Source: Phycisphaerae bacterium
GTDB taxonomy: Bacteria; Planctomycetota; Phycisphaerae; UBA1845; PWPN01
Direction of reading: 5' to 3'
Assembly: GCA_012729395.1 (NCBI GenBank)
Contig: JAAYDF010000229.1
Span: forward strand, 299 to 64,298
Length of the DNA: 64,000 nucleotides
Each line of letters starts with the position of its first letter. Within the stretch, counting starts at the first letter, position 1. Positions 2,515-22,704 of the stretch are shown piece after piece. Under the pieces are notes generated by a model. The model was not told the DNA's origin and searched no databases. It saw only the letters and a list, made by a program, of their open reading frames with translations. The translations under genes and the position numbers were made by a program.

Positions 2515-3369
2515 TCAACGATCGGCGGCCCGGGCCCTGCGAAGGGCCTCGCGCTGCTCGGCGGTGATGAACTTGGCAAGCCGGGCCTGAATGGCCGCGT
2601 GTTCGCGGTCTGTCGGATCCAGTTGCCAAGCCAATCCCACCACGATGCGGTCACCCGCCGGGTGATCCCGACACCAGCGAATCTGCCCGATGAAATCGAA
2701 CGGAGTCGGGTCTCCGGGCAACGAGAAACTCGCCCGATACATCGCGCTGACCGAGAAACGCCGAGCCTCATTCTTCTCGAATACGATTCCGCACCCGGTT
2801 TCGGAGAGATTCATCATTCTGCCCCTCACTCCGGCGTCGGCTTGCGGCCCCGGGGCAGCTTCATCCGCACGATTCCCTTCGGGACAGGCTGAACCCGAAG
2901 CGGAGGCGCTCGCCGCGCCAACCAGCTGGGCGACGGGCTCTTGCTCGGATACTGTCCGGAGTATGATCGCCGCGGACGGCAGATGCATCAGAGATAAACG
3001 ATAACACTCGCGCCGCTGAGCCTTCTCGATCTCCTCGGGGTACTGCAAGGCCAACGCATCGAGAGCCTGGGCCTTGTTCACCCGCCACTGCGTTCGCCCG
3101 ACGACACGGGACCGGAGCCCGAACCGTTGCCCCTTCCACAGAAAGAATAATTCGACCATTTCCCCCGGCCGAATCAGAACCGGTCGCCCGGCAACGGTCG
3201 GCGCGTCCACCACAAGACACTGATCGGCAAGACTGAGGAAGCGGACGTTCGCGTTGATTCTCTGTCGCTTTGGGGAGACGTATCGTAGCTGACACGGAAT
3301 GTTCCGCTGGCACAGATCGACCAGCATCTCGTGCCTGGCTTGGTCCGATACTTTCGGGCACAACGACAA
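2515..3369 (-). CDS. YcgR-like PilZ-domain c-di-GMP receptor
   Basis: QRRECYR and NLSETG motifs, YcgR-like N-domain, C-terminal FITAEQREALRR. Confidence 0.85.
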   Translation of the reverse strand: MSLCPKVSDQARHEMLVDLCQRNIPCQLRYVSPKRQRINANVRFLSLADQCLVVDAPTVAGRPVLIRPGEMVELFFLWKGQRFGLRSRVVGRTQWRVNKAQALDALALQYPEEIEKAQRRECYRLSLMHLPSAAIILRTVSEQEPVAQLVGAASASASGSACPEGNRADEAAPGPQADAGVRGRMMNLSETGCGIVFEKNEARRFSVSAMYRASFSLPGDPTPFDFIGQIRWCRDHPAGDRIVVGLAWQLDPTDREHAAIQARLAKFITAEQREALRRARAADR

Positions 3370-3446: not shown

Positions 3447-3474
3447 TATTCGGCGCAAGGATGTCTGGACTTGA
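3447..3474 (-). promoter_or_regulatory. sigma28 (FliA/WhiG)-type promoter for the PilZ operon
   Basis: Minus strand TCAAG-N15-GCCGAATA, ~80 bp upstream of the first PilZ gene. Confidence 0.65.
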
Positions 3475-3772
3475 CCTAGAGGAAATCGGACAGACGGGCA
3501 GGATCCGATAAAGGTCATGGCGTCGCGTCCGCCACGCCAGAAGCGGCATACCGGTCCCGTTGCGAGGATCGGACAATCACCTCTGCCGCAAAGGGGACGA
3601 TCGGCAATCAAGCCGCGGATGAGGAGCGATCGGCAGCCAGTCAGGCACGACAGGCGAACGCCCGATCACCTGAAAGCGACGTGCGATGGAGGAGACGGAC
3701 GACCCGCAGGAAGCGTCCGGCCTCGATCCGGACACTTCCTGCTGGTCATGGATCCCGGTAATGAAGCGAAGG

Positions 3773-4105
3773 TCAGCGCTTGCTTCGGAAACAGTCGCGG
3801 CAGTAGACGGGTCGGCCCTGGGTCGGCTTGAAGGGCACCGTGGTGTGGGCACCGCACTCGGCGCACACCGCGTCGAAGGTCTCGCGAGGCGGGCGACTTT
3901 GGTAGCCCTCTCCTCCCGAGGATCGCTCGTGCCGGCCTCCGCCTCCTCCGCCACCGCCCTGGTTCTTCCGCTTGGCCCGACAATCGCGGCAGCGTTTGGG
4001 CTCATTGGTGAACCCACGCTCCGCGTAGCGGGCTTGGTCCGCTGCGGAATGCACGAATTCGCAACCGCAATCGGCACATACGATGGTCTTATCCTCAAAC
4101 GACAT
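3773..4105 (-). CDS. zinc-ribbon / CxxC-x17-CxxC domain protein
   Basis: MSFEDKTIVCADCG...FTNEPKRCRDCR, Gly-rich linker, VCAECG...VPFKPTQGRPVYCRDCF; GGAGG RBS before ATG 4105. Confidence 0.9.
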   Translation of the reverse strand: MSFEDKTIVCADCGCEFVHSAADQARYAERGFTNEPKRCRDCRAKRKNQGGGGGGGGRHERSSGGEGYQSRPPRETFDAVCAECGAHTTVPFKPTQGRPVYCRDCFRSKR

Positions 4106-4388
4106 GAGCACTGTCCTCCGTACCCAACCCCAAGCCATAATCCAATGGCTCGGTGTCCTATGACTGGCTGGTAGTCACCCGATCGGAAGGGAGAGGGACG
4201 AAGGGACGGTCCTTCCGCAAGAGGATCGGCCAGCGTGCCAACACTGGCCCTTCGAGTCGGGGCATACCCACCTATGTGGCCCGATCGGCCTGGGATGCAG
4301 GCCCAACACCGCTACGCCGGTGGGCCTCCGCACCTGCCGAACAGACGCCACGCCTCGGCAGCCAACCGCTGCCAATTCACCAACGCGC

Positions 4389-4417
4389 AGTATGCGCGAG
4401 AACCTGCGGCCGGTCAA
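4389..4417 (-). promoter_or_regulatory. sigma70-type promoter for the zinc-ribbon gene
   Basis: Minus strand TTGACC-N17-CATACT. Confidence 0.55.
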
Positions 4418-4643
4418 ACTGCGACCTGAGGACAAGGACCAGCGGGCGGTCACGCTCTGAGCCGGCATTTCCGCGCCGCGAAAGCAAGGTAGCTCCTGGG
4501 CTTTCCGCGGATCGCACCAAGGGGAGGAAACAGCCCAGGCAGCCATTCGGCCCCACTGCGATGAAAGCGTCTCTGGAAGCCTGGCCTGGACACCCTGTTG
4601 CCGAGACCGACGGCAACGCCTGACGCATCTGGAGCGCCGCAGA

Positions 4644-6002
4644 ATGTCAACAGGACGGCAGCTTGCCTGTCTCCGTCTCAAGGGGGTACACTCAGGGTAT
4701 CTGGCAAACCTCGCAGTGCCCTTCTCCGAAGGCGGAGTTCCGTCTACTGGCGGTGTCGTGGGGCAGCCTGCTCGGACAACCAGGGGGACGACAGCGCAGG
4801 GGAGCTCGCGAACGGAGGACGGCACTCCCCCGCGGAGGTGCATAGCCATTCGCAGGACGCTGAGTAAGAACGTCAAGCCCAAGCGGACCACTCTCGCCGA
4901 TGTGGCGGCCGCAGCGGGCGTCTCGATGACCACCGCGTCCGTGGTTCTGGCTGGGCGTCCGGAAGGGTTGCGCCAATTCCGCTCGGCGACCATCGACCGC
5001 GTTCGTGAGCAGGCCGAGCGTCTGGGCTACCAGACTAATCTTTTCGCATCGAGCTTGTCCGGCAGAGCCTCAGCGTTCTTCACCTTGGTCATCCATGATG
5101 TGGGGGGCAACGGGCAAGCACACCCGACGCAGGAGTCCGGAATCCGCTGGTACTACTGGGCCTTCGAGGGCAGCTTGCTGGCCGGGGTGATTCAGGCGGC
5201 TCGCACAACCAGTCTGCATCCGATTATCGCGACATGCGGTCCTGATGCCGATCCCCAGAGCATACAGTCAGTGCGGCGGATCATCTCGGGCGGCGTACGC
5301 GGCACCATCGCTCGGACGCCACCAGCTCCCCTGGAAAGCTACCTGCGGCAGAAGTGGCGTCAGGGACACCGGCTGGTTGTCGTGTTTCCCGAGCGATTCG
5401 CATCCTGGCCATCCAATGCCCTGGACGTGGACAATCGTGCGATTGGCCAAATCGCTGCCCTCTTGCTTCATCGCCAGGGCCGACGGCGATGGGGCCTTGT
5501 GCGTCCGCCGCACCACAGCCTATCGCTCAACCATCGCTGTGAGGTCTTTCAAGCGATGGCGCACGAGTTGGGTCTGGAGGTTCACGTGGTGGAGTTGCCG
5601 GCTCATCTGCCGGAAGGGTTCGCGGCCACCTCCGTCGCTCACAACCTGCGGCAACTCAAACTTGACGGGTTGTTCGCCCTCAACTGTGTGGCGTCCGTGA
5701 GCGCCCTTTTGGGCTGCATGCAGAACGGCCTCAAGCCCGGCATCGACGTCAGCCTGGTGGGTTGCGATTCGTCTTTGTGGCAGAGTTCCCAGCTTCCGCG
5801 AATCACATCCGTAGACATCTCCTGGAAGGCGGTGGGGATCACCGCGCTGACCAAGCTGTTGGAGATGGTGGAGACGGGTGAAACGCGGTTTGACAACGTG
5901 CTGCTGCAGCCGCAGATCACGCCAGCCGAGAGCTGTCCGGTCCCGTCGGACATGCTGGCCGGTCAGGATCAAGGCGACTGGGAATCGCGAACCGCCCAGT
6001 AA
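4644..6002 (+). CDS. LacI-family transcriptional regulator (true start probably near 4860)
   Basis: TLADVAAAAGVSMTTASVVL HTH, ERLGY hinge, periplasmic-binding-like domain ending DVSLVGCD...ITSV; first ~70 aa of the ORF look non-coding. Confidence 0.88.
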   Translation: MSTGRQLACLRLKGVHSGYLANLAVPFSEGGVPSTGGVVGQPARTTRGTTAQGSSRTEDGTPPRRCIAIRRTLSKNVKPKRTTLADVAAAAGVSMTTASVVLAGRPEGLRQFRSATIDRVREQAERLGYQTNLFASSLSGRASAFFTLVIHDVGGNGQAHPTQESGIRWYYWAFEGSLLAGVIQAARTTSLHPIIATCGPDADPQSIQSVRRIISGGVRGTIARTPPAPLESYLRQKWRQGHRLVVVFPERFASWPSNALDVDNRAIGQIAALLLHRQGRRRWGLVRPPHHSLSLNHRCEVFQAMAHELGLEVHVVELPAHLPEGFAATSVAHNLRQLKLDGLFALNCVASVSALLGCMQNGLKPGIDVSLVGCDSSLWQSSQLPRITSVDISWKAVGITALTKLLEMVETGETRFDNVLLQPQITPAESCPVPSDMLAGQDQGDWESRTAQ

Positions 6003-6082
6003 CAGGCGGACGTCTGTCACACCGGGCTGCATTCTTGGTGCAGTCTTTGTCTCGGAGCCTTGTTGCCTGTAGATTGATCGGC

Positions 6083-6694
6083 GTGATCTACCTGACGGTC
6101 AAACGTGGACTGGACATTGTGGTCAGCCTGGCGTTGATCGCCCTGCTGTCGCCTGTTTGGTTGGCTGCGTCGCTGGCGGTCAAGTGCAGTTCTCGTGGGC
6201 CGGTGCTTTTCGTGCAGGAGCGATGTGGACAGGCCGGCCGGCGGTTCCCGCTGATCAAGTACCGGACCATGCGTGTGGACCACGTCCACGACCCGACGGA
6301 GATCGTGGCGCTGCGCCATCCGGGAGTGACCTGGGTTGGTCGGATTCTGCGACGGACAAAGGTGGACGAACTACCTCAGTTGTTCAACGTGCTGGCGGGC
6401 CACATGTCCCTGATCGGCCCGCGGCCCACGATTCCCGAGCAAGTTGAGCAGTACGATGATTTTCAGCGGCGTCGACTGGAGGTCCGGCCGGGTATCATCG
6501 GCCTGGCCCAAGTGAACGGGAATGTCGCCCTGACGTGGGATGAGCGGATTCGCTACGACGTGTACTACGTGGACCATGTGTCGGCGGCGCTGGATCTGGG
6601 AATCATGCTCAAGTCGGGTGCGGTGGTTGTGCTGGGCGAGGAACGTTTTGCCCGGCCATTCGATGCGAGTCCATACGCGGGGCGGGATGGATGA
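6083..6694 (+). CDS. polyprenyl-phosphate phosphoglycosyltransferase (bacterial sugar transferase, PglC/WbaP C-terminal type)
   Basis: KRGLDIV...KYRTM...GRILRRTKVDELPQLFNVLAGHMSLIGPRP...YDVYYV; start GTG 6083 inferred. Confidence 0.9.
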   Translation: MIYLTVKRGLDIVVSLALIALLSPVWLAASLAVKCSSRGPVLFVQERCGQAGRRFPLIKYRTMRVDHVHDPTEIVALRHPGVTWVGRILRRTKVDELPQLFNVLAGHMSLIGPRPTIPEQVEQYDDFQRRRLEVRPGIIGLAQVNGNVALTWDERIRYDVYYVDHVSAALDLGIMLKSGAVVVLGEERFARPFDASPYAGRDG

Positions 6695-7590
6695 ACGCGG
6701 CGTTGATGGGAAGCGTGAGTTCGAGTGCGGCCGCGTTGCGAGGTCTGCTGCGGGGAGGCCTGGAGATCACCGGCGTCCTGGGGCTGCCGGAGGATATGGC
6801 GGCGCGAATCAGCGACTACGCGAGTCTCGGCTCCTTGGCGAAGCAGGCCGGCGTGCCCTTCGTCCCGTTCCGTAAGGTCACCGAAGACGCGGTGCGATCC
6901 TTTCTCCATGATCGCCGGCCGGACTGGCTGTTCGTGATCGGGCTGTCACAGCTTGTCTCGGCGGATTTGCGTGGTCTGGCACCCCAGGGTGCGGTGGGCT
7001 TCCACCCCACGCCGCTGCCGGAGGGTCGCGGGCGAGCGCCGGTGGCCTGGACCATTCTGCTGGATCGGCCGGCAGCGGCGAACCTGTTCTTTCTGACGGA
7101 CGAAGCCGACGCGGGCGACATTATCGCCCAGCGCGCGGTACCGGTGCTGCCGAACGACTATGCGGCCGATCTGATTGCCCGCACGAACGTCGTGCTGGAG
7201 GAGATGGCGGCGGAGTTGGCGCCGGCTTTCGCGAGTGGGGAAGTGCCCCGGACTCCGCAGGATCACCGCCGGGCAACGTGGTACGCCCGGCGTCGGCCGG
7301 AGGATGGTCTCATTGACTGGACCCAATCGGCCCGCGACATCCAGCGTCTCATCCGGGCGGCGAGCCGTCCGTACCCGGGCGCATTCACGGGACATCACGG
7401 GCAGAAGATCGTGATTTGGCGAGCTGACTGGACGTTGGAATGCGGCGGGAATGCGGCCCCGGGCACGGTCGTCGAGGTCCGCGACGGCAAGCCGGTCATC
7501 CAAGCCGGACGCGGCTTGGTTCAGGTGGTGGAGTACGAGACCGCGGGCCCGGCAACCCCGGTCGTGGCAACAGGCGACCGGTTGGGTTAA
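6691..7590 (+). CDS. Fmt/ArnA-like N10-formyl-THF formyltransferase, probably acting on an amino sugar
   Basis: GFHPTPLPEGRGRAP, DAGDIIAQ, RRPEDGLIDW, IRAASRPYPGAF. Confidence 0.88.
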   Translation: MNAALMGSVSSSAAALRGLLRGGLEITGVLGLPEDMAARISDYASLGSLAKQAGVPFVPFRKVTEDAVRSFLHDRRPDWLFVIGLSQLVSADLRGLAPQGAVGFHPTPLPEGRGRAPVAWTILLDRPAAANLFFLTDEADAGDIIAQRAVPVLPNDYAADLIARTNVVLEEMAAELAPAFASGEVPRTPQDHRRATWYARRRPEDGLIDWTQSARDIQRLIRAASRPYPGAFTGHHGQKIVIWRADWTLECGGNAAPGTVVEVRDGKPVIQAGRGLVQVVEYETAGPATPVVATGDRLG

Positions 7591-7643
7591 TGTGACCGTC
7601 ACGGGCGATATCGTCTGAACGCGTCCTTGGGAGAAATGCGGCG

Positions 7644-8366
7644 ATGCCAGCACGGAGTTCCGATCGAGTTGAGTCGCGCCAAGTGAGTTCACCGCCGAAG
7701 ATCCTCGTGGTGGCGCCGCATCCGGACGACGAAGTGCTGGGATGCGGTGGTACGATTGCCCGCTACGCACGGGCGGGCGGAGAGGTGACCGTGGCCGTGG
7801 TCACCAAGGGCACGCCGTTGTTCCCGGCGGCCCAGGTTCGGCGAGTACGGCGCGAGGCCCGCGAAGCCAACCTTGCATTGGGCAGCAAGCTTTGCTTTCT
7901 GGACTTGCCGGTGACGACGTTGCAGCTCATGCCCGAGCACCGCCTGAACGGGGTTTTTGACCGGCTGGTGGGTACGGTCCGGCCGGACGTGGTTTTCCTC
8001 CCCTACCGTTGGGATCGGCACGAGGATCACCGGCAGGTTTTCGACGCGTGCATGGTCGCGTTGCGGCCTGACGGTCGGCGTCCGGCTCCTCGACGCGTCT
8101 GTTGCTACGAGACGTGCTCGGAGACGCATTGGTCGGCGGCGGGCGTGGAGCCCGCGTTTGAGCCGAACTGGTACGTGGACATCACAGACACGCTGGCGAG
8201 CAAGCTGAGCGCCTTGCGTGCCTACGCATCGCAGATCGAGGGGGGAGTTCCGGCTCGCTCGGTTGAAGCCGTGGAGGCTCTGGCCCGATTCCGCGGCAGC
8301 ACGGTGGGCATGGTGGCGGCGGAAAGCTTCCTGATCGTGCGCGACACATGGCCGGCCGGCCGGTAA
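7644..8366 (+). CDS. PIG-L/LmbE-family N-acetylhexosamine deacetylase
   Basis: VVAPHPDDEVLGCGG, DRHEDH, YVDIT..LASK..AL.AYASQ, AESF. Confidence 0.9.
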   Translation: MPARSSDRVESRQVSSPPKILVVAPHPDDEVLGCGGTIARYARAGGEVTVAVVTKGTPLFPAAQVRRVRREAREANLALGSKLCFLDLPVTTLQLMPEHRLNGVFDRLVGTVRPDVVFLPYRWDRHEDHRQVFDACMVALRPDGRRPAPRRVCCYETCSETHWSAAGVEPAFEPNWYVDITDTLASKLSALRAYASQIEGGVPARSVEAVEALARFRGSTVGMVAAESFLIVRDTWPAGR

Positions 8367-8530
8367 GGGGCCAGCCTCGAAGCCGGCGGGGAGCATCCGC
8401 GGCACGAGTGTCGGATAGGTATACACAAACGAACGGCCCATCGAGTGCCCGTCGGTGACGTTTCCACAATGCCGTCGAGCTTGGCGACGTACTGCACGTG
8501 CGACGTTCGAGGGCAACGGCATCGAGAATC

Positions 8531-10960
8531 ATGGCACGACACAGATCACCACGGCAACCGACGCCCCGGAAGCGACGTGCCCCCCCGCGCCAGCCAAGGG
8601 AGTCACTATCCCGCGCGCCCGTCGAGCCGTCCTATCCGAACCCGGATGCTGATCCTGCCATACCGGACGAAGCGTTTTTCGAGGACATGGGGCAGGAGGT
8701 CATACCACAGGTCCGCGAAGCGCTGATCCCCCCGGAGCGGTCGTTTTGGGAAGATACGGCAGCAGCCCGAGCTTATCTCAGGCACATGCCTCACCCGGCA
8801 GCGATCCTGGTGGGGCTGGGGGCCGGGTGGCAGTGGACCGGCCTGCGCCGCATGATTGCCTCGATCCTCGACGCTTCCCCCGGCACAGTCACCATGGTGG
8901 CCGCGGTGGTCTTCCTGGCTGCTTCGATCGGTCCGCGGGTACCCGGTCGGTTCATGCTAGCCATCGCTTCTCGACTCAGCGTTCGCTGGAGGCAAAGAAC
9001 GGCCGAGTTGACTGACGAAGAAGACGCCTTCTGGATGTTGCGAGCGATCCGTGACCGCGACGCGTCGCTGCTATGGTTGTCGTTCGCGGCATTGACCAGC
9101 ATCGCGGGGGGCGTCGCCTTGGCCACGCTGGCGGCGACGGGCCTGTTTGCGGCGGTTCATCGCTGGCTGATGGCGCACTTCCTGTGGACTGAGCTGACGC
9201 TCAGCCTGCTGGAATGGCTGAGCGTCACCCTGTTGGCGGGGGCGGCATGGGTCGTCAACGGCATGGTCGTGGCCGGCTTGGCCCCGGTCACAGGGGCCCG
9301 CTCGGACGCCCGCCAAAGCCCGCCCGGGATTGTCGGGGGGTTGCTGGTCGGACTGGGCTTATCGTGGATGCTGCACGAGGTGTGGTTGCTGTGGGGCATC
9401 TCCGGCCAGCAGGAATGGTTGCTGGGGGTATTGCCGGTCTTCGCGTTGTCGATCATCGCGGCGGTGATGACCAAGCGTTGCGAGTCGGCGGCGCCGCCTC
9501 TTCCTTCGCAGGAGTCGGACGCCCCGGAATTGACCGCGCATGCGGAAGGTTGGATTTGGCTATCGCTGGTGATGTGGGCCTGCGGGACGATGCTCGCCTT
9601 TCAGGGATGGTATGGTTGCCGTTCGTGGGATCTTCCGCCGAGGGGGTTGGCAGCGGGCGGGATAGGGTTTGGGGTGCTCCTGTTGGGTGCGGGGATGGCC
9701 CTGGCGTCGTGGCATGCCCAGTATCGGAAGCGGTCGCCTTCGGGCTGCGGGATGGCCTTGTGGGCGGCCGGCCTGGGCGTGGGCCTGGCTGCCAGCCTGA
9801 CCGCGTGGTGGTCGGCGGGCAGCGGGAGCGCCGTGGTTCAGCTCCTGGGCATGGCTCTTCCCGCGGGTTACGCACTGCATTATGCCGAGCGGGCGTGGCT
9901 GGCACGAGCGGGCAGTGAAACGCTGGGCTTCGCCCACATGACAACCGCCCTGCTCGCGGGCTGTGCGATCAGCCTCATCGCTGGCCGATGGTGGGTCCTG
10001 CCAGCGTTGGGTCCCATGGGCGCGATGAGCACCGGCACGCTGGCATTGTTGGCGTTCGGAGGTCTGGTCCAGATCTACGAAGAGGAGAGCCCCGCGCACA
10101 CTCAGCGATTGCGTTTGTCGTTGGTGTTCGCTTCGCTGGCGGCGGCGATCGTGCTTCTACCGGCCAACGCCCGCCTGTGGGGGCGGCAGGTATGGACCAG
10201 TCGGAATCTCCCGGCCGCGGGCACCATGCTGGCCGACTTCCTGCACAAAGACAACACCATCAAGAGAGTTCTCCTGATTGGAGCGGAGCCTCCCCGGAGC
10301 CTCGGCGAAGCGGATCTTCGCATCCGCGGCATCGACTGGGTACCGTTGCATCCCGAGCATCGCTCAGCGAGTCCATCATCCGCGAAACACGGCTCGGCGC
10401 AACCGCTCGGCCCAAACGGCTTTCGCACGCTGCGATTCCTGCGTGGCCGGTATGACTTGGTTTACCAGGCTTGCCCACCGCCGGGCCTGTCCTCCGGTGC
10501 TCCAGCCTATGCCGGGGAATGGCTAAGCCGGATAGCGGAGCAAACGACGCCCGGTGGGCAAGTAGTCCTGGAGGCGCCACTCGAACAGGCGACGGCCCAG
10601 ACCCTGCAAGTTTTGGGCATCACATTCGAGCAAGCGTTGCGGTCCGAAGGCTACTGCTGTCTTGCCGAATCAGGCACCCGGACGACCCTCTTGTTATGGT
10701 GCCGACCGGATCGATCGCGAGGCGTCAAGCCCGTGCTGCCGGGACAGTGGTTTCCGGTCAGCGCCTTGCTGAGTCCTAAGCACCACACACTGCAAGCACA
10801 TTCGCTACAGCGGGATCAACTCAGCGCCACCTTGCTGAGAGAGAACGCCAAGAACCTCGCGGACCTGACGGAATGGCTTCGCTCAAGAACCGCCATGTCC
10901 GTTCCCTCCCGCGGCAGCTCGATGGGCTCGAACACCACGGACAACGGGTCCTTGAGGTAG
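8531..10960 (+). CDS. large polytopic membrane protein with a degenerate C-terminal spermidine-synthase/SAM-methyltransferase-like domain
   Basis: More than 12 hydrophobic segments, then KRVLLIG, GRYDLVYQ and EWLSRIAEQTTPGGQVVL remnants resembling fused MFS/spermidine synthase proteins. Confidence 0.55.
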   Translation: MARHRSPRQPTPRKRRAPPRQPRESLSRAPVEPSYPNPDADPAIPDEAFFEDMGQEVIPQVREALIPPERSFWEDTAAARAYLRHMPHPAAILVGLGAGWQWTGLRRMIASILDASPGTVTMVAAVVFLAASIGPRVPGRFMLAIASRLSVRWRQRTAELTDEEDAFWMLRAIRDRDASLLWLSFAALTSIAGGVALATLAATGLFAAVHRWLMAHFLWTELTLSLLEWLSVTLLAGAAWVVNGMVVAGLAPVTGARSDARQSPPGIVGGLLVGLGLSWMLHEVWLLWGISGQQEWLLGVLPVFALSIIAAVMTKRCESAAPPLPSQESDAPELTAHAEGWIWLSLVMWACGTMLAFQGWYGCRSWDLPPRGLAAGGIGFGVLLLGAGMALASWHAQYRKRSPSGCGMALWAAGLGVGLAASLTAWWSAGSGSAVVQLLGMALPAGYALHYAERAWLARAGSETLGFAHMTTALLAGCAISLIAGRWWVLPALGPMGAMSTGTLALLAFGGLVQIYEEESPAHTQRLRLSLVFASLAAAIVLLPANARLWGRQVWTSRNLPAAGTMLADFLHKDNTIKRVLLIGAEPPRSLGEADLRIRGIDWVPLHPEHRSASPSSAKHGSAQPLGPNGFRTLRFLRGRYDLVYQACPPPGLSSGAPAYAGEWLSRIAEQTTPGGQVVLEAPLEQATAQTLQVLGITFEQALRSEGYCCLAESGTRTTLLLWCRPDRSRGVKPVLPGQWFPVSALLSPKHHTLQAHSLQRDQLSATLLRENAKNLADLTEWLRSRTAMSVPSRGSSMGSNTTDNGSLR

Positions 10961-11095
10961 ATTGGCGCGGCCCCACGATACGCGCCGACCCACGCGGGCG
11001 CTCACCAGAGGCGGCGGTGATTGGCATATTATCGGTCCAGGGACCTCGTTCGTGAATTGCGTTGCGGATCGCTGGATTGCCTGAAGCACTGAAGT

Positions 11096-11123
11096 TCAAG
11101 TGCCCCCCCCACCAGTCCGATGA
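11096..11123 (+). promoter_or_regulatory. sigma28-type promoter for the pilin gene
   Basis: TCAAG-N15-TCCGATGA, ~120 bp upstream of ATG 11244. Confidence 0.6.
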
Positions 11124-11243
11124 CTCCCGATGGAATGGACGGACATCCGCATCTGGCGATGCGGTCTCCCGGCTACACGTATCTCGGGGGATTGGTCAAT
11201 TACTAGGGGTGCGGCACTGCCGCAGCAGATGGAGACGTCAAAG

Positions 11244-11663
11244 ATGAGACGTGCCCGACAAGCATTCACGCTGGTAGAGGTTCTGATTGTGGTCATCGTC
11301 CTGGGGATTCTGGCTGCGATTGTCATCCCGCAGTTCACGGACGCCAGCACGGACGCGAAAGCCAGTTCACTGGAAACGAACAAGCAGATTGTTCGCGGCC
11401 AGGTCGAGCTGTACAAGCTCCAGCATGATGGCGAATACCCGGACGAGAAGACTTTCACGGACCAGATGACCAAGGCCAGCAAGATAGACGGGACGACCTC
11501 GGATCCCGGAAGTGCGGGCTTCGATCTGGGACCGTACCTGCAGTCGATCCCCAACAACCCGTACACCAGCACCAATACGGTGGGTTCGGGAGCGCGCGGT
11601 TCGAGCGCCTGGTACTTCAACTCGAAAACGGGCGAGTTCCGCGACAACCACACGCTGGACTAA
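11244..11663 (+). CDS. type IV pilin (GspG/PilA-like), probable major pilin
   Basis: Class III signal MRRARQA|FTLVEVLIVVIVLGILAAIVIPQF with Glu5; GPYLQSIPNNPY; own promoter and terminator. Confidence 0.9.
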   Translation: MRRARQAFTLVEVLIVVIVLGILAAIVIPQFTDASTDAKASSLETNKQIVRGQVELYKLQHDGEYPDEKTFTDQMTKASKIDGTTSDPGSAGFDLGPYLQSIPNNPYTSTNTVGSGARGSSAWYFNSKTGEFRDNHTLD

Positions 11664-11727
11664 CAGGGCATAGCCAGTCCAGGGTACATGAGCAGTCCGC
11701 ACCTGCCGGGCACGATCTCAACGATAC

Positions 11728-11774
11728 GTGGGTTCGTCAGACCATTGGGGGGGCTGGCGAACCCGCCTTTTTTT
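11728..11774 (+). terminator. intrinsic terminator after the pilin
   Basis: GTGGGTTCGTCAG / CTGGCGAACCCGC stem with GU pairs, followed by a T run. Confidence 0.75.
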
Positions 11775-12004
11775 CTCGCGGCATTCGGGGGCTGAGAGAT
11801 GGGAGGAGGTGCCGCGTTGCCGATCGCCATCATCCTTGGTCCACCTCGACCATGCATCCTCCCGAGGCCGTACTCACAACAGGCAGGCGTCCGTTCGACC
11901 GGGCCGCTCGCAAGATGAACTCTGCGACGGCAGGTTATCGGACCTGATGAGCCGCCGGACGACAACCGGGCACGAATTTCCGCAACCGACTGAAAACGAG
12001 ACCG

Positions 12005-12032
12005 TTAAGGTCGGATTCAGCGGCACCGATAA
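12005..12032 (+). promoter_or_regulatory. sigma28-type promoter for the pilM operon
   Basis: TTAAG-N15-ACCGATAA, close to the TAAA-N15-GCCGATAA consensus. Confidence 0.7.
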
Positions 12033-12136
12033 GAGTAACGAGTGCCCGGTGGTCGTGGAGCGTGTCATCAATGGCCGGGCGGCATATGCGCGAACCAGGC
12101 GGACCGCCGCCTGGACGCACGAGCGTGAGGGATACC

Positions 12137-13282
12137 GTGAGTCGTTCATTTTCCTGGGTACCAAGACACATCGGCCCGATCGGAATCGACTTCGGTGCGC
12201 GCGTGGTACGCATGCTCCAGTTGGCCCGCCACAAGGGGCAGCTCACGATGACCTGCTACGCCCAGCGCGAGATACCTGAAGGGGTGACCGATGCGGCGGA
12301 TCGCCGGCAACTCCAAATGCAGGCGGTCCAGGACATGCTCAAGACGGAGCGTTTCTCCGGGCGGAACACCGCGACGGCGTTAAGCTGGGATGATCTGAAC
12401 ATCCGGAATGTGCGTATACCCACCATGCCGGAAGGAGAGATTGCCACCGCTATCAGGTTTGAAGCTGGTGACCGCTTCGGCATGGACGCGACTCAGGCGG
12501 AGATGCGGTTTCTCGTGGCGGGCGATGTTCGTCAGGGGACTGACATCCGGCAAGAGGTCATCGTCCTGGCCGCCGGCCGAAAGGCGATCGATGCTCATGT
12601 GCAACGGCTGACTCAGGTGGGGCTTCACCCCGTCGCGATCGACGCCCAGCCGTGTGCGTTGTTCCGATGCTTTGAGCGGTTTCTGCGGCGAGACGAAGAC
12701 AGCAATCAAGTCAACGCGTTTGTGGACATTGGGTACACGGGCACACGGGTCATCATGTCCCGCGGCGCGGAGTTGACCTTCATCAAGTCGATCCCGATCG
12801 GCGGGAGGCGATTTGACGAGCTGGTCAGTGAGGGGATGGAACTCAGCACTACGGAGGCGGCCCAGCTCCGCATACGCCTTCACCGTTACCACGTCGCCAT
12901 GCTCACAGGTCAGGAGATGCGAATCGGCCCGGACGAGGCGGTGGGCGAGGGCATGCGGCGGGCAATACTTGACGCTCAGCGGCCGGCCTTGGAGCAGTTG
13001 AGCAAGGAAATCGCTCTGTGTATTCGCTATTGCTCGGTCACCTTCCGCGGCCCCCGGTCCGACTCGGTCACAGTCCTGGGGGGCGAGGCGTGCAATGCGG
13101 AGTTACTGCAGCTGCTTTCGGATCAGGTACATGTGCCGTTTCGAGTCGGCAAACCGATGCGGAACATCACTCTGGAGTCGGCCTACGGTAGCGCGGACAG
13201 GCGAACCGGGCAACCGGAATGGGCCACGGTGCTGGGTTTGGCCCTCAAGCCGACCATTGAAAACGCGGCGGTGGCATCATGA
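12137..13282 (+). CDS. pilM: type IV pilus assembly protein PilM
   Basis: IGIDFG, FVDIGYTGT, IPIGGRRFD, VLGGEA and GLALK actin-fold motifs; first gene of an MNOPQ array; start GTG 12137 inferred. Confidence 0.88.
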   Translation: MSRSFSWVPRHIGPIGIDFGARVVRMLQLARHKGQLTMTCYAQREIPEGVTDAADRRQLQMQAVQDMLKTERFSGRNTATALSWDDLNIRNVRIPTMPEGEIATAIRFEAGDRFGMDATQAEMRFLVAGDVRQGTDIRQEVIVLAAGRKAIDAHVQRLTQVGLHPVAIDAQPCALFRCFERFLRRDEDSNQVNAFVDIGYTGTRVIMSRGAELTFIKSIPIGGRRFDELVSEGMELSTTEAAQLRIRLHRYHVAMLTGQEMRIGPDEAVGEGMRRAILDAQRPALEQLSKEIALCIRYCSVTFRGPRSDSVTVLGGEACNAELLQLLSDQVHVPFRVGKPMRNITLESAYGSADRRTGQPEWATVLGLALKPTIENAAVAS

Positions 13283-13932
13283 AGGAACTAGACTTCCTGC
13301 CCTTGAGCTTCCACCAGGCGATCGCGAGAAGGCGAGAGCATCGCCGCAACACTGCGCTGTCCGTCGCGCTGGTGCTGGCGATGGGTATCCTGCATGTCGT
13401 GAACAACCAGCGTATCAACTCTGCGCAGGCTTCGCTGGCATCCTTGCGTGGGGCCTCGGGGGCATTTCAGAATGCCCGTGACCTCGCGGAGTCCTACCGG
13501 GTTCGCAAGGCGCTCCTGCTACAACAGACCGATTTGCTGAATCGACTCGAGGACAACGCTCCGCCGGACGCGGTACTCGCTGAGGTCACCCGGTACATGA
13601 CCAAGGCGATGGCCTTGCGGGCCATCGAGATTGCGAGTCGTGAAGGTCAAGCAAAGTCCGTCGAATCCGGCCGGCAGCGCGGCCGGGGGCAACCCGAGGC
13701 GGAAGAGGCGCGCGAGTTGATTCCCGTGCCTGAGCGAGAACTGACCGCGGTTCGGCTTACAGGCATCGCCGCAACCGACCTGGAAGTGGGCGTATTCTTT
13801 GGACGGCTGAGCTCCTCACCGTTGTTCGACGACGTTCAGATGGTCTTCTCGCAGGAGACCACGGTGCATGAGCAGCCGATGCGGGAGTTTCAGTTGACCT
13901 TTGTGGTCAAGCGTATCGAGATGACACCGTGA
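13279..13932 (+). CDS. pilN: type IV pilus assembly protein PilN
   Basis: N-terminal ELDFLP (INLLP-like), TM helix, coiled coil, LTGIA...LSSSPLFDDV...EFQL. Confidence 0.82.
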   Translation: MKELDFLPLSFHQAIARRREHRRNTALSVALVLAMGILHVVNNQRINSAQASLASLRGASGAFQNARDLAESYRVRKALLLQQTDLLNRLEDNAPPDAVLAEVTRYMTKAMALRAIEIASREGQAKSVESGRQRGRGQPEAEEARELIPVPERELTAVRLTGIAATDLEVGVFFGRLSSSPLFDDVQMVFSQETTVHEQPMREFQLTFVVKRIEMTP

Positions 13933-14471
13933 ACACGATGAAAATGAGTCTTGACCGGCGATCCGTTCTGTGGATCGTGGGGATCCTGGTTGCGACAGCG
14001 GCCTTCTGCGGCATGATCGTGCGACCGCAGTTTGGGCGGCTGGTTTCGCTGAACGCGATGATCGATCGTGAACATACAGAGATCACCTCTGGCCAGAACA
14101 GTCCCCAGTCCATCGCCCAACTGCAACAGGAGGTTGAAGAGCTAAGTCGGCTGGCCGCACGGTTTGACGAGCAGATTCCGCGTGAGGCGGACTTGGGCGG
14201 GATTGTGCAAACACTAGCCGCCTTCGCGGAGGCCCATCAACTGCGTCCGGACAGCATCAAGCCCGGAGCGGCGGTGACCTACTCCGATGTCACAGGGTTA
14301 CCGATCGCGATTCGAGTGCGCGGCCCCTTCCAAGCGATCTTTGAGTTGATCAAGAGTATCGAGCAATCGCCGAGGCTTACGCAAATGGAACGTTGCGCGG
14401 TCATCGCGGACAACGACGGAAAGGCGGTCACCGCCGAACTGGATTTCAGGGTGTTCTTCCGTGCCTCATGA
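13929..14471 (+). CDS. pilO: type IV pilus assembly protein PilO
   Basis: TM helix, coiled coil, QIPREADL, LPIAIRVRGPFQAIFELIKSIEQSPRL. Confidence 0.85.
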   Translation: MNTMKMSLDRRSVLWIVGILVATAAFCGMIVRPQFGRLVSLNAMIDREHTEITSGQNSPQSIAQLQQEVEELSRLAARFDEQIPREADLGGIVQTLAAFAEAHQLRPDSIKPGAAVTYSDVTGLPIAIRVRGPFQAIFELIKSIEQSPRLTQMERCAVIADNDGKAVTAELDFRVFFRAS

Positions 14472-15061
14472 GCGGGGCCGGTGATTGGTTAGGGATGAAC
14501 ATGGCAAACGGCAGGCCTCCAGTTCTGGTATTGATTCGGGCCCACCTGCAGGCGGACCCGAAGAAGACCGCCGTGCTGGGCCTGCTGGCCATCGTCATGG
14601 TCATCGTCTATGTGCGGATGTTCACGTCCGCGGAACGACCGCGAACGGCGGCGGCGAGTGAGCTCGTGACGGTGCCGGCGAGTCCTGCCCTTGAGGCGGA
14701 CCGGGGCGAGGGCTCTTCGCCCAACCGGACGAAGGCCCGAATCGCCCTGCGTGAGCCGGTCAACCGGCAATTGGTTCGCGATCCATTCGTGGTGCCGTCG
14801 CTCTACGTTGAGGCGGAGTCGCCGGTGAATCGGGAGGGCACGGCGGGCTTGTCCGGACAGGCTCTTGAGCGGGAGGTGCGGGCCGGGGCCCAAAACCTCG
14901 TGCTGCAAAGCACCATCTGCGGCCATAGGCCGTTGGCGACGATTAACGACCGCGTGCTTGGCGTCGGGGATGAAGTTGAAGGCTTCATCATCGAACAGAT
15001 CAAGCCAACCAGTGTGACGGTTCGGCGGGCCGGGGTTCTCGTGAGGCTGCCGCTGAAATGA
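14468..15061 (+). CDS. PilP/GspC-like assembly protein
   Basis: TM helix, RDPF motif, C-terminal LQSTICG..ATINDRVLGVGDEVEGFIIEQI; lies between pilO and the secretin. Confidence 0.7.
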   Translation: MSGAGDWLGMNMANGRPPVLVLIRAHLQADPKKTAVLGLLAIVMVIVYVRMFTSAERPRTAAASELVTVPASPALEADRGEGSSPNRTKARIALREPVNRQLVRDPFVVPSLYVEAESPVNREGTAGLSGQALEREVRAGAQNLVLQSTICGHRPLATINDRVLGVGDEVEGFIIEQIKPTSVTVRRAGVLVRLPLK

Positions 15062-15074
15062 GGGAGTGCTCGTC

Positions 15075-17483
15075 ATGATCAGGAAGATGTCAAGGATGAT
15101 GCCCCACGGACGGCGCACCCACGCGATGTGGGTGGCGTTGCTGTTGGTATTGCCGCTGATGTCGTTTCGGGGCAGCGATGCGCTCGGGCAGGCCCCGCCC
15201 ACGTCGCCGCAGGCCACCGCGACCGAATCGGTGATCGAGTTGGACAGTGCGACGCCGGAACCGCCCCTGAACCAGATTTTCGTGGACAGCCAAGGCCGTG
15301 TCGAGCTCCACGTGCGTGATCTCGATCTGGCCGCCGTACTGCAGATGCTGTCGATGCACAGCCGCCGCAACATCGTCGCGACGCAGGGAGTTCAAGGTCG
15401 CAAGGTGACGGCGAACCTTTACGACGTCACATTCGAGGAAGCGCTCGATGTCCTGCTGATCAGCCACAACTGCACCTGGCACAAGGCGGAAGGCTTCGTA
15501 TACGTCTACCCGAACACGCCGAGCGAGGAGAGCGAAGCCCGGCCACTGGACATTCAGGTAAGTCTTGACGGACGGGTGACTTTGCGGGCCTACGAGCAGC
15601 CGTTGAGCACCGTCTTGCAGGCACTCGCCAGCCAAGCCAACCGAAACATCATCCCCGACCCGGAGGCATCGGAGCGTCGCGTCAACGCGAACTTGAAGGA
15701 AGTACCCTTCGATCAGGCCTTGACCGCGATCCTCGACCAACACGGCGGGGGTTGGGAAGAGCAAGACAATCTGATCTACGTGTACTCGCCCGAAGCATGG
15801 GCCCGCAAGAGCATCGAGAAGAAAGAGGCGACTCTGCTGGAAACTCGCCTCTTCCGCCTGCATTACATCACCGCGGAAGAAGCGGAGAAGATGATTACTC
15901 CTTTGCTCAGCACGATCGAGGGTGAGGTCAGCGCCTTGAACCGCAGTGCCGAGCTTCGAGGGAACATCACACAAGAGCAGCAGCTTGAAGACTCATCGGG
16001 ATGGCGGGGACAATCGCCCGGCGGACAGCAGGACGGCGTCGCGTCTTCGGTGACGCGTTCGCGTCAGCTTCAGCCGGTCGGGCAGGGATCCTCGTCTTCA
16101 ACCGAGAAGGAGTTGGTCGAAACCATCCAGTCTGAGTCCGCGGCGTTCAGCATCGGTTCGAAGGATATGGACAACGCCTGGCTGCTGGTCCGCGACTACA
16201 AGGACAACTTGAACAAGATCGCGGAAGTTATCGCCCAGATCGACGCTCGCCCCAGGCAGGTCTTGGTGGAGGCTACGATTCTGCGAGCCCGGCTGGACGA
16301 GAACAACGCACTGGGCATCGATTTCAACTTTGTGGGCGGTGTCGATTTTCAGGCCTTGGGGTCGACGTCGACCGGTGTGACGGACCTCGTTACCGGGGAC
16401 TTGCCGCTCAACCGGATGAATGACACGAACATCACGACGCGTACGGACTTCAACGACGCGATCGCGCCGGGCGGGCTCACTTTCGGCTTGGTCAAGGGAT
16501 CCGTCAGCGTGTTCGTGCGAGCGCTGGAGGAGATCACGGACACGACCATCCTGGCCAACCCCAAGATGCTCGTCCTCGACAAGCAGGAAGGCCAAGTGCT
16601 TGTCGGCCGCGAGGACGGCTACCGCAACACGATCGTGACGCAGACGGCGGCCATTGAGACTGTTGAGCAGCTCCAGACGGGCACGAAATTCAGGTTTCGG
16701 CCCTTCATCGGGGACGATGGATTCGTGCGTGTCCAGGTCCGTCCCGAGGACAGCAGCGGCGGTCTGACCGGCGCCAACCTGCCCTTCAAGCAGACCACGG
16801 AGGTTGAAACCAGCGTGGTTGTGCGGGATGGGCACACGATCCTGATCGGCGGGCTGTTCCGCGAGATGTCATCGGCGGCCCGCGGGCAGGTCCCGGTGGT
16901 TGGCAACATTCCCGTGGCCGGAGCCCTCTTCCGCAACTCGCGAGACAACACACAGCGTGAGGAAGTCATCATCCTTCTGACTGTCCATGTGGTCAAGAAT
17001 GAAGCGGAGGCGGACAAGGCCAGCATGGCGGCCATGCAAGATGTCGAACGTTACCGGGTGGGCATGCGGCAGGGGCTGCAACTGCACGGCCGGGAACGGC
17101 TGGCCCAGGCGCATTACCGATGGGCACAAGAGCATCTGGCCAAGGGACACCGTGGGCAAGCGCTGTGGGATCTCGAATTGGCCCTCAACAACAACCCCAC
17201 CCTTGTGCCGGCCATGCGTTTGAAGGAACGCATCACCAGCCGCCGGGATTACGACGAGGATGGCAGTTCGGTGCGTGGCTTCGTGCGGCGTCAGATCATG
17301 CGGGAGACGGGTGAAATCGCCCCTCTCTTTGGCCGGCCTGAACCGCTACTCGACGACCTTCCTCTTCAAGGCCCCAGTGGGTTCGACGATGGCGACGGCT
17401 CGCCTCCACAGGCGACCGGCGGAGCAGCGCCCTTCACCACCCCGTCGCAGGAATCGACCACATCTGTCAAGGAGGACACCTGA
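15075..17483 (+). CDS. pilQ: secretin (PilQ/GspD) with two STN/N0-like domains and a C-terminal TPR-like extension
   Basis: FRLHYITA, IAQIDARPRQVLVEATIL, ILANP, VRDGHTILIGGL, VPVVGNIPVAGALFR, EEVIILLT. Confidence 0.9.
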   Translation: MIRKMSRMMPHGRRTHAMWVALLLVLPLMSFRGSDALGQAPPTSPQATATESVIELDSATPEPPLNQIFVDSQGRVELHVRDLDLAAVLQMLSMHSRRNIVATQGVQGRKVTANLYDVTFEEALDVLLISHNCTWHKAEGFVYVYPNTPSEESEARPLDIQVSLDGRVTLRAYEQPLSTVLQALASQANRNIIPDPEASERRVNANLKEVPFDQALTAILDQHGGGWEEQDNLIYVYSPEAWARKSIEKKEATLLETRLFRLHYITAEEAEKMITPLLSTIEGEVSALNRSAELRGNITQEQQLEDSSGWRGQSPGGQQDGVASSVTRSRQLQPVGQGSSSSTEKELVETIQSESAAFSIGSKDMDNAWLLVRDYKDNLNKIAEVIAQIDARPRQVLVEATILRARLDENNALGIDFNFVGGVDFQALGSTSTGVTDLVTGDLPLNRMNDTNITTRTDFNDAIAPGGLTFGLVKGSVSVFVRALEEITDTTILANPKMLVLDKQEGQVLVGREDGYRNTIVTQTAAIETVEQLQTGTKFRFRPFIGDDGFVRVQVRPEDSSGGLTGANLPFKQTTEVETSVVVRDGHTILIGGLFREMSSAARGQVPVVGNIPVAGALFRNSRDNTQREEVIILLTVHVVKNEAEADKASMAAMQDVERYRVGMRQGLQLHGRERLAQAHYRWAQEHLAKGHRGQALWDLELALNNNPTLVPAMRLKERITSRRDYDEDGSSVRGFVRRQIMRETGEIAPLFGRPEPLLDDLPLQGPSGFDDGDGSPPQATGGAAPFTTPSQESTTSVKEDT

Positions 17484-18724
17484 TGCGAGGCCTTGCCTGG
17501 ACAGTATGCATCATCGCCTTGGGCCTGGGATTGGCCGCATGCTCGGAGATGCGCCCAGAGGACAGCAAGAAGGAAGTGCGTCAGCACTGGGACACGATGC
17601 GTGCCCGGCTGAAGTACCAACTGGCCCTGGATAGCTTCAACTCCGGCCAACTTGACCAAGCCCACGAAAGGCTGCGGGAGTCGCTGGCGCTCGATTCGAT
17701 GGCCGCGCCCGCCTATGCGTTGCTCGGCAAGATCCTGCTGGAGCGTGGCGAAGTGGCGGCGGCCTCCCAGGCATTGGAGCAAGCGGCCCAGTACGGCGGC
17801 GACAAGCAGGGTGAGGTTCCCTACCTTCGCGGGCTGATCGCCCAGCGGTACGAACGGTTCGAGGAAGCTCTGAGTTGGTATCGGCAGGCCTCGTTCGCCG
17901 ACCCCATGAACGCTCACTATGTGGCGGCGGTGGCGGAGACACTGGTCGCTCTCGGCCGCCCCAACGAAGCTCTGGCCCTTGCCCGCGGCCGTTGGACCGA
18001 CTTCGAACAGAATGCGACATTGCGTTCGCTGACGGCGGGCATCGAGATGTTGTTGGGGCGATATGAAGAGGCGGCGGACGCCTACCGCGAGGCCCTGCGA
18101 CTGGCACCTCAGGATGATATCCTGCGCTGGCGGCTGGGTTCGGCCCTGGTTTTGGCCGGGCGTCACGAAGAAGCCGCTGACGTTCTGGCATGCGCGACTC
18201 AAAGCGACAAGCAAGCGCCGACAACCGCTCTGGTCGATCTGGGTCATGCGTCGCTGGAATTGGGGCGGGCGGATCAAGCCAAGACGCTGCTACGGCAGGC
18301 AACCAGTCAAGAACCAACGCTGGTGAGTGGTTGGCTGTGGCTGGCGCGGGCCTCGCTGATGTGCGAGGATCTGGTCACCGCCCGACGTTCCGCTCAAGAG
18401 GCCGTGCGTATCGAGCCGGACAACGACGGACATCACATTCTGCTGGCTTACGTGTGCCTGCGGCAGAAGGATTATCCAGCCGCGGAGGCATCCAGCCAGG
18501 TGATTCTCCGACAGCGTCCCGACGACCCACTGGCGCTCCATCTCCTGCATCTGGCACAGTCGCATCTCGATCTATCCGAGGCCTCGTACCGATCTCTGCC
18601 AATGACCTCTGAGTCCGACCCGGCGGCGGCCGGGCGTTTGGCGGAAATCTCCGAGCACGACATCGGCGGCTCGACCGCGCCGACCACCGAGGCCCACCTG
18701 AACAGGAGGGCTCGATCGCCATGA
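17483..18724 (+). CDS. TPR lipoprotein, probable secretin pilotin (PilF/Tgl-like)
   Basis: Lipobox LAAC, many TPR repeats, translationally coupled to the secretin. Confidence 0.75.
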   Translation: MRGLAWTVCIIALGLGLAACSEMRPEDSKKEVRQHWDTMRARLKYQLALDSFNSGQLDQAHERLRESLALDSMAAPAYALLGKILLERGEVAAASQALEQAAQYGGDKQGEVPYLRGLIAQRYERFEEALSWYRQASFADPMNAHYVAAVAETLVALGRPNEALALARGRWTDFEQNATLRSLTAGIEMLLGRYEEAADAYREALRLAPQDDILRWRLGSALVLAGRHEEAADVLACATQSDKQAPTTALVDLGHASLELGRADQAKTLLRQATSQEPTLVSGWLWLARASLMCEDLVTARRSAQEAVRIEPDNDGHHILLAYVCLRQKDYPAAEASSQVILRQRPDDPLALHLLHLAQSHLDLSEASYRSLPMTSESDPAAAGRLAEISEHDIGGSTAPTTEAHLNRRARSP

Positions 18725-20244: not shown

Positions 20245-20264
20245 CATGCAAGAGAGGAGCGGTC

Positions 20265-20660
20265 ATGGGCAACAAGACCATCCTGATTGCGGACGATGAG
20301 ACGCACATTCTGAACGTGCTCTCGATCAAACTTCGGAACGCCGGCTTCAACGTCGTCACGGCGGAGGACGGCGCCGAGGCGTACGCCCTGGCTTGCGCGC
20401 ACCAACCGGACTTGGTCATTACCGACTACCAGATGCCGCTTCTGAGCGGGCTGGAGCTGTGCAGCAAGTTGATGAGTGATCCCAAGACGCGGAATGTGCC
20501 GACCATTCTCTTGACGGCCCGCGGTTTCTCGATGTCCGAGGCGGATATTACTTCGCACAACATTCGAGAGGTGATCACCAAGCCCTTTAGTCCGCGCGAA
20601 GTGCTGGCCCGTGTTCAGGATCTGGTTCAGCACAACGTCGTGGGGGTTGCTTCCGTGTAG
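20265..20660 (+). CDS. single-domain response regulator
   Basis: ILIADDE, DLVITDYQMP, LTAR, TKPFSP; intact phospho-site, no output domain. Confidence 0.92.
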   Translation: MGNKTILIADDETHILNVLSIKLRNAGFNVVTAEDGAEAYALACAHQPDLVITDYQMPLLSGLELCSKLMSDPKTRNVPTILLTARGFSMSEADITSHNIREVITKPFSPREVLARVQDLVQHNVVGVASV

Positions 20661-20677
20661 TTTGGGGGAGCTGAACG

Positions 20678-22360: not shown

Positions 22361-22701
22361 AAGTGCAGACCGACATACGGGATGACCTGGCCATCCTCGC
22401 CGTCGCGGGCGAGCTGAACGCCGATTCAGTCGCCAAGTTCGGGGAAGCGGTCGAGCAAGCACACACCCAAGCGGCGCGGGATTTCATCGTGGACCTTTCC
22501 GAGGTCACCAGCGTGGACAGCGCGGGGCTGGAATGCCTCGTCCGTCTGCAGCGCGAGGCCGAGGAGCAATTGGGGATGGTGCAGTTCTGCGGCGCCGACC
22601 AGACACTGAGCAAGATCTTCGAGATGACGCGGCTGGATAAGCGTTTCACCCTGCATCCGAGCGTTGATGCGGCCATAGCCAGCTTTGCACCCGCGGGATA
22701 A
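22357..22701 (+). CDS. STAS-domain protein (anti-sigma factor antagonist type)
   Basis: VAGEL, IVDLSEVTSVDSAGL with the phosphorylatable Ser, IFEMTRLD. Confidence 0.9.
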   Translation: MKVQTDIRDDLAILAVAGELNADSVAKFGEAVEQAHTQAARDFIVDLSEVTSVDSAGLECLVRLQREAEEQLGMVQFCGADQTLSKIFEMTRLDKRFTLHPSVDAAIASFAPAG

Positions 22702-22704
22702 CCG

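Follow-up and report, generated by a model that had tools for sequence, protein, structure and literature searches.

Candidate sigma-28-type promoters upstream of a type IVa-like pilus cluster and a PilZ operon in a Phycisphaerae bacterium

We analyzed a stretch of 64,000 nucleotides (nt) from the genome of a Phycisphaerae bacterium (GenBank assembly GCA_012729395.1, contig JAAYDF010000229.1, positions 299 to 64,298; hereafter the window), in which three similar two-box motifs stand upstream of an operon of PilZ-domain genes, a type IV pilin-like gene, and a cluster of pilus genes led by pilM. From our analysis, all three motifs are likely to be functional promoters of the sigma-28 family (FliA/WhiG), in which case the type IVa-like pilus and the YcgR-like PilZ operon would share a regulon with flagellar and chemotaxis genes. 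The sigma-28 reading of the sites is well supported in silico because the motif is enriched in promoter position, precedes flagellar genes of the same genome, is accompanied by an encoded FliA, and is conserved across the order.

Sequence and position of the three motifs

The site of the PilZ operon lies at 3447-3474 on the minus strand (TCAAG-N15-GCCGAATA), that of the pilin gene at 11096-11123 on the plus strand (TCAAG-N15-TCCGATGA), and that of the pilM-led operon at 12005-12032 on the plus strand (TTAAG-N15-ACCGATAA). An earlier note on this DNA, made from the letters alone, had given these positions and letters, and they agree exactly with the sequence; the 15-nt spacer and the orientation of each site toward its own gene, also described there, are true of all three. 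Measured from where the -10 box ends, the likely start codon is 78 nt away for the PilZ operon (TTG 3369), 121 nt for the pilin gene (ATG 11244; 106 nt if ATG 11229 is the start), and 105 nt for pilM (GTG 12137, with GAGGGA ahead of it). The central CGA that is invariant in the GCCGATAA type of -10 box is present in TCCGATGA, ACCGATAA, and GCCGAATA, and the -35 boxes (TCAAG, TCAAG, and TTAAG, each 15 nt before the 8-mer) correspond to T(C/T)AA-N16. The PilZ site is the weakest of the three, and its -10 box departs from the GCCGATAA consensus at positions 6-7. The consensus published for WhiG is T(A/C)AA-N16-GCCGATAA (PMC12871210) and that for Bdellovibrio FliA is TTAAG-N16-CCGATA (PMC3627812). 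The boxes and spacing observed here equal both of these sigma-28-family consensuses, and the TTAAG of the pilM site is the Bdellovibrio form of the -35 box.

Other types of promoter and leader were also looked for. A scan with the E. coli-type sigma-70 consensus, the only sigma-70 form that it covered, gave no coding-strand match ahead of the pilin gene, pilM, or the PilZ operon. The best sigma-54-type candidate, located 18 nt before the pilin ATG, has 3 mismatches in 11 positions and was judged implausible. An Rfam scan of positions 1-27000 at the gathering threshold returned 0 matches, so the 5' untranslated regions contain no known riboswitch or leader.

Enrichment of the motif in promoter position

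The earlier note had suggested a genome-wide scan for enrichment, and such a scan shows the enrichment. The genome (5.74 Mb, 63% G+C, 370 contigs, with the window being part of contig C201) was searched on both strands with the regular expression TYAAG-N15-NCCGAWRA, varying the spacer; a match was counted as being in promoter position when it fell in none of the called genes, had the same strand as the gene that follows, and was separated from that gene by less than 300 nt. With the 15-nt spacer there were 10 matches genome-wide, seven of them in promoter position, and with 16 nt there were seven, of which five were in position. Spacers of 12, 13, 14, 17, and 18 nt gave 2, 1, 11, 7, and 8 matches, respectively, and not one of these 29 was in promoter position. 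The same preference was found with a two-block position weight matrix (PWM A) built from 23 sites with the window's contig left out. At a score of at least 18, 11/24 matches with spacer 15 and 7/13 with spacer 16 were in promoter position, as against 0/12, 2/9, 2/20, 1/15, 0/16, and 0/3 for spacers 12, 13, 14, 17, 18, and 19. The motif is enriched in promoter position at spacers 15 and 16 and not at other spacers, and the three motifs are more than chance occurrences.

The individual sites differ in how far they stand out. With spacers 12, 13, 18, and 19 as control, the pilin site (21.2 by PWM A) is equaled or exceeded by nine spacer-15/16 matches, seven in position, compared with five control matches, none in position. 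At the level of the PilZ site (16.5) there are 58 spacer-15/16 matches with 24 in position (control: 73, with 4 in position), and at the level of the pilM site (16.3) there are 79 with 27 in position (control: 110, with 8 in position). Because the control spacers give false matches at these two scores, the case for the pilM and PilZ sites leans on conservation. A narrow matrix (PWM B), for which the fliM sites of 29 relatives were the sole training set, scores the pilin site at 22.3 and the pilM site at 16.8. The earlier note had seen no equal match before other genes, and this holds for the window, where the three sites are the sole spacer-15/16 matches in promoter position that score at least 16; the remaining window matches of similar score are inside genes, at spacer 14.

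FliA and flagellar targets of the motif

In the rest of the genome, we found the same two-box motif upstream of fliM, fliN, flgM, fliD-fliS, and a gene for a chemoreceptor with a four-helix bundle (methyl-accepting chemotaxis protein, MCP). A pair of cytidylyltransferase (CMP-sugar) and NeuB genes, such as serve to glycosylate flagellin, is also preceded by one of the top sites. The proposal of the earlier note depends on fliA and flagellar genes being present, and both are. FliA is encoded directly after fliPQR-flhB-flhA-flhF-flhG, i.e., in the flagellar export cluster, with matches to TIGR02479 (251.1 bits; cut-off 189.6) and NF005413 (214.8 bits; cut-off 201). The anti-sigma factor FlgM is encoded as well (PF04316), and its gene is among those that carry the motif. 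Judged from these genes, this genome demonstrably makes use of a sigma-28-type promoter motif.

fliM (contig C259) and fliN (contig C110) each have a sigma-28-type promoter of their own. In enteric bacteria, the fliM and fliN switch genes belong to an earlier flagellar class, and putative sigma-28 control of these genes is unusual.

Conservation of the sites within the order

We looked for equivalents of these sites in 40 relatives from the same order. Upstream of fliM, 30/30 loci have a site of the form TCAAG (or TAAAG/TGAAG/TCATG)-N15/16-TCCGATAA-like, 137-298 nt ahead of the FliM domain, and 26 of the 30 score at least 21. Within 450 nt upstream of pilM, 16/20 orthologue loci (35-88% protein identity) contain T[TCGA]AAG-N15-[AG]CCGATA[ACT], mostly at -105 to -196. 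Of the four pilM loci with no site, one is preceded by just 216 nt of sequence, and in two a pilin-like open reading frame (ORF) abuts pilM and the site is further upstream. Pilin-like ORFs were identified in the relatives by searching upstream of pilM for ORFs with a prepilin motif, and in 12/13 relatives such an ORF has T[CTG]AAG-N15/16-nCCGATxx within 300 nt. When 17 pilM sites were aligned, the information content was high only at T.AAG and ACCGATA and low in the spacer and flanks, a two-box pattern that is as expected of a predicted sigma recognition site. The consensus for the clade is TCAAG/TAAAG-N15/16-nCCGATAA.

Homologues of the YcgR-like gene that heads the PilZ operon are found in 7/40 relatives (E <= 1e-10). 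A PWM site is present at four of these seven loci, two more have sub-threshold variants recognizable by eye, and one has nothing. The congener G001 has the same boxes at the PilZ site with a diverged spacer between them, and variant boxes are seen in G014, G007, and G024. The candidate PilZ site is weaker but recurs in relatives.

Loci outside the order served as control, using a 120-genome sample of the phylum. At 11 pilM-homologue loci (25-34% identity) there is no proximal spacer-15/16 site scoring at least 12, with one weak spacer-14 match, and 20 of the 29 fliM loci have no match of at least 12 in 600 nt. Because the loci outside the order mostly have no site, the scan does not simply find the motif everywhere, and the arrangement seems to be characteristic of this order as far as the sampled genomes go.

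The pilin gene and the pilM cluster

The pilin gene (11244-11663, plus strand) encodes a type IV pilin/pseudopilin-like protein of 139 residues, whose N-terminal prepilin methylation motif is matched by N_methyl (29.6 bits) and which also matches TIGR02532 (26.7 bits; cut-off 16.3). Its best score is on the GspG model, at 53.1 bits, which is below the cut-off of 88.85. An intrinsic terminator follows the gene at 11728-11774 on the plus strand, consisting of a hairpin of 15 pairs (11728-11766) and seven T (11768-11774), with a folding energy of -33.9 kcal/mol and a z-score of -2.26. Because of this strong hairpin and the seven T, we consider the pilin gene as a unit of its own.

The cluster downstream is entirely on the plus strand. 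pilM, pilN, pilO, an ORF in the PilP position, and the pilQ secretin gene (12137-17483; PilM_2, PilN, PilO, Secretin/STN) are followed by genes for a TPR protein, a PAS histidine kinase, a response regulator, an HD_5 (HD-GYP-like) protein, and a STAS protein (17483-22701) and by pilB (T2SSE, with an N-terminal MshEN domain), pilT, and pilC (22705-26913). The ORF in the PilP position (14393-15061) gave no match to the PilP family. The families found together, i.e., N_methyl, PilM_2, PilN, PilO, Secretin, two T2SSE (one with MshEN), and T2SSF, are those of a type IVa system. From pilM to pilC, which ends at 26913, the gaps between genes are at most about 110 nt, and the number of terminator-like sites in 11600-27200 (eight, versus 9.6 in shuffled sequences) is not above expectation; a single long pilM-pilC operon is possible. 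The genes of the PAS kinase, response regulator, HD_5 protein, and STAS protein are located at 18721-24432 of the window, between the secretin and TPR genes and the MshEN-bearing pilB. MshEN is a domain that binds cyclic di-GMP (c-di-GMP). These embedded signaling genes may form a built-in module for c-di-GMP control of the pilus.

The PilZ operon and its surroundings

The PilZ operon is on the minus strand and comprises three PilZ-domain genes. The first (2515-3369) has the YcgR-type layout of an N-terminal PilZNR domain (PF12945, 31.8 bits; cut-off 23) followed by PilZ (PF07238, 44.5 bits), which marks it at the domain level as a YcgR-like c-di-GMP effector; NCBIfam models gave no match for this gene. 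The second gene (1653-2471) has a PilZ domain of 29.7 bits, and the third (886-1656; PilZ, 46 bits) overlaps the second by 4 nt. On account of the combination of PilZNR and PilZ, the product of the first gene is more likely to be a flagellar brake than a part of the pilus. The earlier note had placed a pilus system "and its c-di-GMP readers" in the sigma-28 regulon. The promoter part of this proposal is supported by conserved motifs and an encoded FliA, but no evidence connects the PilZ operon with the pilus. In E. coli, the class 3 genes include ycgR and pdeH, and YcgR is a PilZ effector of the flagella under FliA control (PMC8669469), with the same PilZNR-PilZ layout as the first gene here. 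The present case differs in that three PilZ genes occur in a row and the similarity to E. coli ycgR is at the domain level only.

About 30 nt upstream of the -35 box of the PilZ site there is a further element, TTATCGG/TTATCAG (TCCGATAA on the plus strand, 3504-3511), which is kept in G001, G014, G008, and G007. An antisense -10 box and the site of a regulator are two possibilities for this element. A divergent plus-strand promoter at TCCGATAA 3504-3511 was considered and rejected; the plus-strand ORFs there are not conserved as protein, and the conserved gene of the region is on the minus strand. This small gene (3776-4138) encodes two treble-clef zinc-finger domains (PF13451 and PF23477), its product is 93% identical in the congener G001 compared with only about 60% for the overlapping frames, and it is covered by RNA-library contigs of the runs X2 and X3.

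Proposed mechanism

In the mechanism that we propose, RNA polymerase with a sigma-28 factor of the FliA/WhiG family, most likely the FliA of the export cluster, would read the three sites. Three units would be transcribed: a monocistronic pilin gene ended by the intrinsic terminator; a unit that starts with pilM and perhaps extends through pilNO(P)Q and the genes of the TPR protein, PAS kinase, response regulator, HD-GYP-like protein, and STAS protein to pilB-pilT-pilC; and the PilZ operon, the first member of which resembles the flagellar brake YcgR. Because the same motif precedes fliM, fliN, flgM, fliD-fliS, and the chemoreceptor gene, pilus and flagellar genes would be turned on together in motile cells. 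If FlgM acts as it does elsewhere, both sets of genes would have to wait for completion of the hook-basal body. We infer FliA as the reader, the transcript starts, the extent of the long operon, and the coupling to FlgM from these arrangements, and specificity to a swarmer stage, which the earlier note had raised, is speculation.

Evidence against the sigma-28 reading and alternative explanations

Several observations weigh against the reading of these sites as sigma-28 promoters read by FliA. The five flagellin genes (C166:41275-44027, C164:23034-27759, and C58:41545-42054), which are classic sigma-28 targets, have no strong match, the best being TCAAG-N14-GCCAAAGA with a score of 14.9. The gene calls on which promoter position depends are rough (3,999 ORFs, 83% coding). 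By PWM B the PilZ site scores 7.7, which is background, with 1,462 matches scoring at least that much, and, judging from the control spacers, about 1/7 to 1/12 of the promoter-position matches that score as high as the pilM and PilZ sites would be false. The matrix used for the relatives was seeded with 26 sites that include the pilin and pilM sites of the window, and the 40 relatives are related by descent and are not independent samples. Among three RNA-library runs, contigs of X2 (11145-11888) and X3 (11164-11861) span the pilin gene, but the contigs of a probable DNA run break at 11110/11168 and 11850/11881, close to the ends of the RNA contigs, and for this reason the RNA contigs say nothing on where the pilin transcript starts or ends. 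The genome also encodes a second FliA/WhiG-like sigma factor, which could read similar promoters. Apart from these points, we observed that one of the flagellin genes adjoins fliW and csrA, a neighborhood which hints at post-transcriptional control of flagellin.

The second sigma factor (C218:17138-17938, minus strand) gives rise to the explanation that the promoters are real and of the sigma-28 family but that this factor, and not the flagellar FliA, reads the pilus and PilZ units, so that pili would have a separate regulator whose consensus overlaps that of FliA. Its gene is in a non-flagellar neighborhood, beside genes for a Ser/Thr protein kinase and a pseudouridine synthase, and its product is 39% identical to FliA; at 184.8 bits on TIGR02479, however, the paralogue falls just below the cut-off, and it is under the family cut-offs generally. 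Promoter sequences need not separate two such factors, as two WhiG clades of Actinomycetota have consensuses that are inseparable by sequence according to PMC12871210. In the order studied here, the pilM sites favor TTAAG with ACCGATAA and the fliM sites TCAAG with TCCGATAA, which would suit two readers, but flagellar and pilus sites have common boxes and both spacer classes and do not split by either. We regard a division of labor between the two sigma factors as unlikely, though it deserves to be kept in mind.

Two other explanations dispense with a sigma-28 factor. Conceivably, the motifs could be chance or non-functional look-alikes, with the pilus genes using sigma-70 or sigma-54 types that simple scans do not capture in this phylum. 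The promoter scan covered the E. coli-type sigma-70 consensus only, the RNA contigs yielded no transcript start, and at scores of about 16 the control spacers still produce matches in promoter position (4/73 and 8/110). Nevertheless, genera whose proteins are 35-88% identical keep the boxes in corresponding places amid diverged spacers and flanks, homologous loci from outside the order lack the sites, and the pilin site is among the best nine spacer-15/16 matches of the genome; we give the look-alike explanation very little credence. Conservation alone cannot separate a sigma site from a regulator site, and the conserved boxes could in principle be operators of a DNA-binding regulator, the more so as the TTATCGG/TTATCAG element upstream of the PilZ -35 box is conserved too. 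An operator would, however, have to account for two asymmetric boxes at a fixed spacing of 15/16 nt that always face the gene from 60-200 nt upstream of the start codon, and for boxes that match the published sigma-28 consensus exactly and also precede flgM, fliM, and fliN. That the boxes are operators seems to us scarcely credible. On balance, sigma-28-family promoters read by FliA remain the explanation that we favor.

Further candidate members of the regulon

Outside the window, a gene for a ParA/MinD-like ATPase with a C-terminal CBM48/AMPK glycogen-binding domain (C120:40274-41616) has a near-canonical promoter, TAAAG-tttt...-N16-ACCGATAA, and an equivalent of this site is found in 27/28 of the relatives' loci. 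From this recurrence, the gene appears to be a conserved non-flagellar sigma-28 target. High-scoring sites were also observed before a polysaccharide-export/exosortase EpsH/ParA-like operon (C325:24015-29110) and the genes for an XerD-like recombinase (C199:14108-15326), an FtsH protein (C169:9657-11808), and a DUF1571 protein (C77:32700-33776).

A broader reading, which we put forward tentatively and at less than even confidence, is that FliA is not a late-flagellar sigma factor in this order but the master switch of a motile-cell program of about 25-40 promoters, with pilus assembly under the FlgM checkpoint. Such a program may include the type IVa machine with its module of kinase, response regulator, HD-GYP-like protein, and STAS protein, the YcgR-like readers, the ParA-like ATPase, polysaccharide export/exosortase, fliM, and fliN. 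It gains some support because the site of the ParA-like ATPase gene recurs so widely among the relatives. If true, it would be a planctomycete counterpart of the attack-phase program of Bdellovibrio or the swarmer program of Caulobacter.

Relation to known systems and significance

The earlier note had implied that sigma-28 control of type IV pili is rare. This was overstated, since such control has been published for Actinomycetota, for Bdellovibrio (Tad pili), and for cyanobacteria; sigma-28-family control of pili is already known in other phyla, and what is new here is the Phycisphaerae case. In the Actinomycetota, sites of WhiG/FliA sigma factors are predicted in type IV pilus clusters and are reported as confirmed in Actinoplanes missouriensis, which forms zoospores, and in Rubrobacter radiotolerans, and these factors have links to c-di-GMP and motility (PMC12871210). 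Apart from the different phylum, the Actinomycetota differ in that some of their sigma factors are under the c-di-GMP-dependent anti-sigma factor RsiG, whereas FlgM is encoded here. In Bdellovibrio bacteriovorus, TTAAG-N16-CCGATA, which has the same boxes and spacing as the sites described here, occurs in 92/140 attack-phase promoters, many of them non-flagellar (PMC3627812). The promoter of flp1 (Tad) responded to FliA in an E. coli reporter, and what responds there is a type IVb/Tad pilin operon, the type IVa pilA being listed in that paper as non-FliA-regulated (PMC5430801). By contrast, the system described here is a type IVa-like cluster (PilMNOQ, PilB, PilT, and PilC) in another phylum, and its support is computational.

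Cyanobacteria are not known to have flagella. In Synechocystis sp. PCC 6803, the group 3 factor SigF, which is related to the sigma-28 group, directly recognizes the promoter of the major pilin gene pilA1, which is of a novel type and not of the GCCGATAA type (PMC2532724). A full-text literature search, judged from its listings, returned no description of a planctomycete sigma-28 regulon.

The Planctomycetota, and the Phycisphaerae in particular, are mostly uncultured. For this group, the analysis yields a clade-specific sigma-28 consensus and a map of a predicted regulon that would place flagella, type IVa pili, and c-di-GMP effectors under a single sigma factor. It predicts that the swimming cells would also be piliated, surface-probing cells. 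In essence, this would be a fourth phylum in which the flagellar sigma factor has been extended to pili, and it bears on how often shifts from motility to attachment run through FliA.

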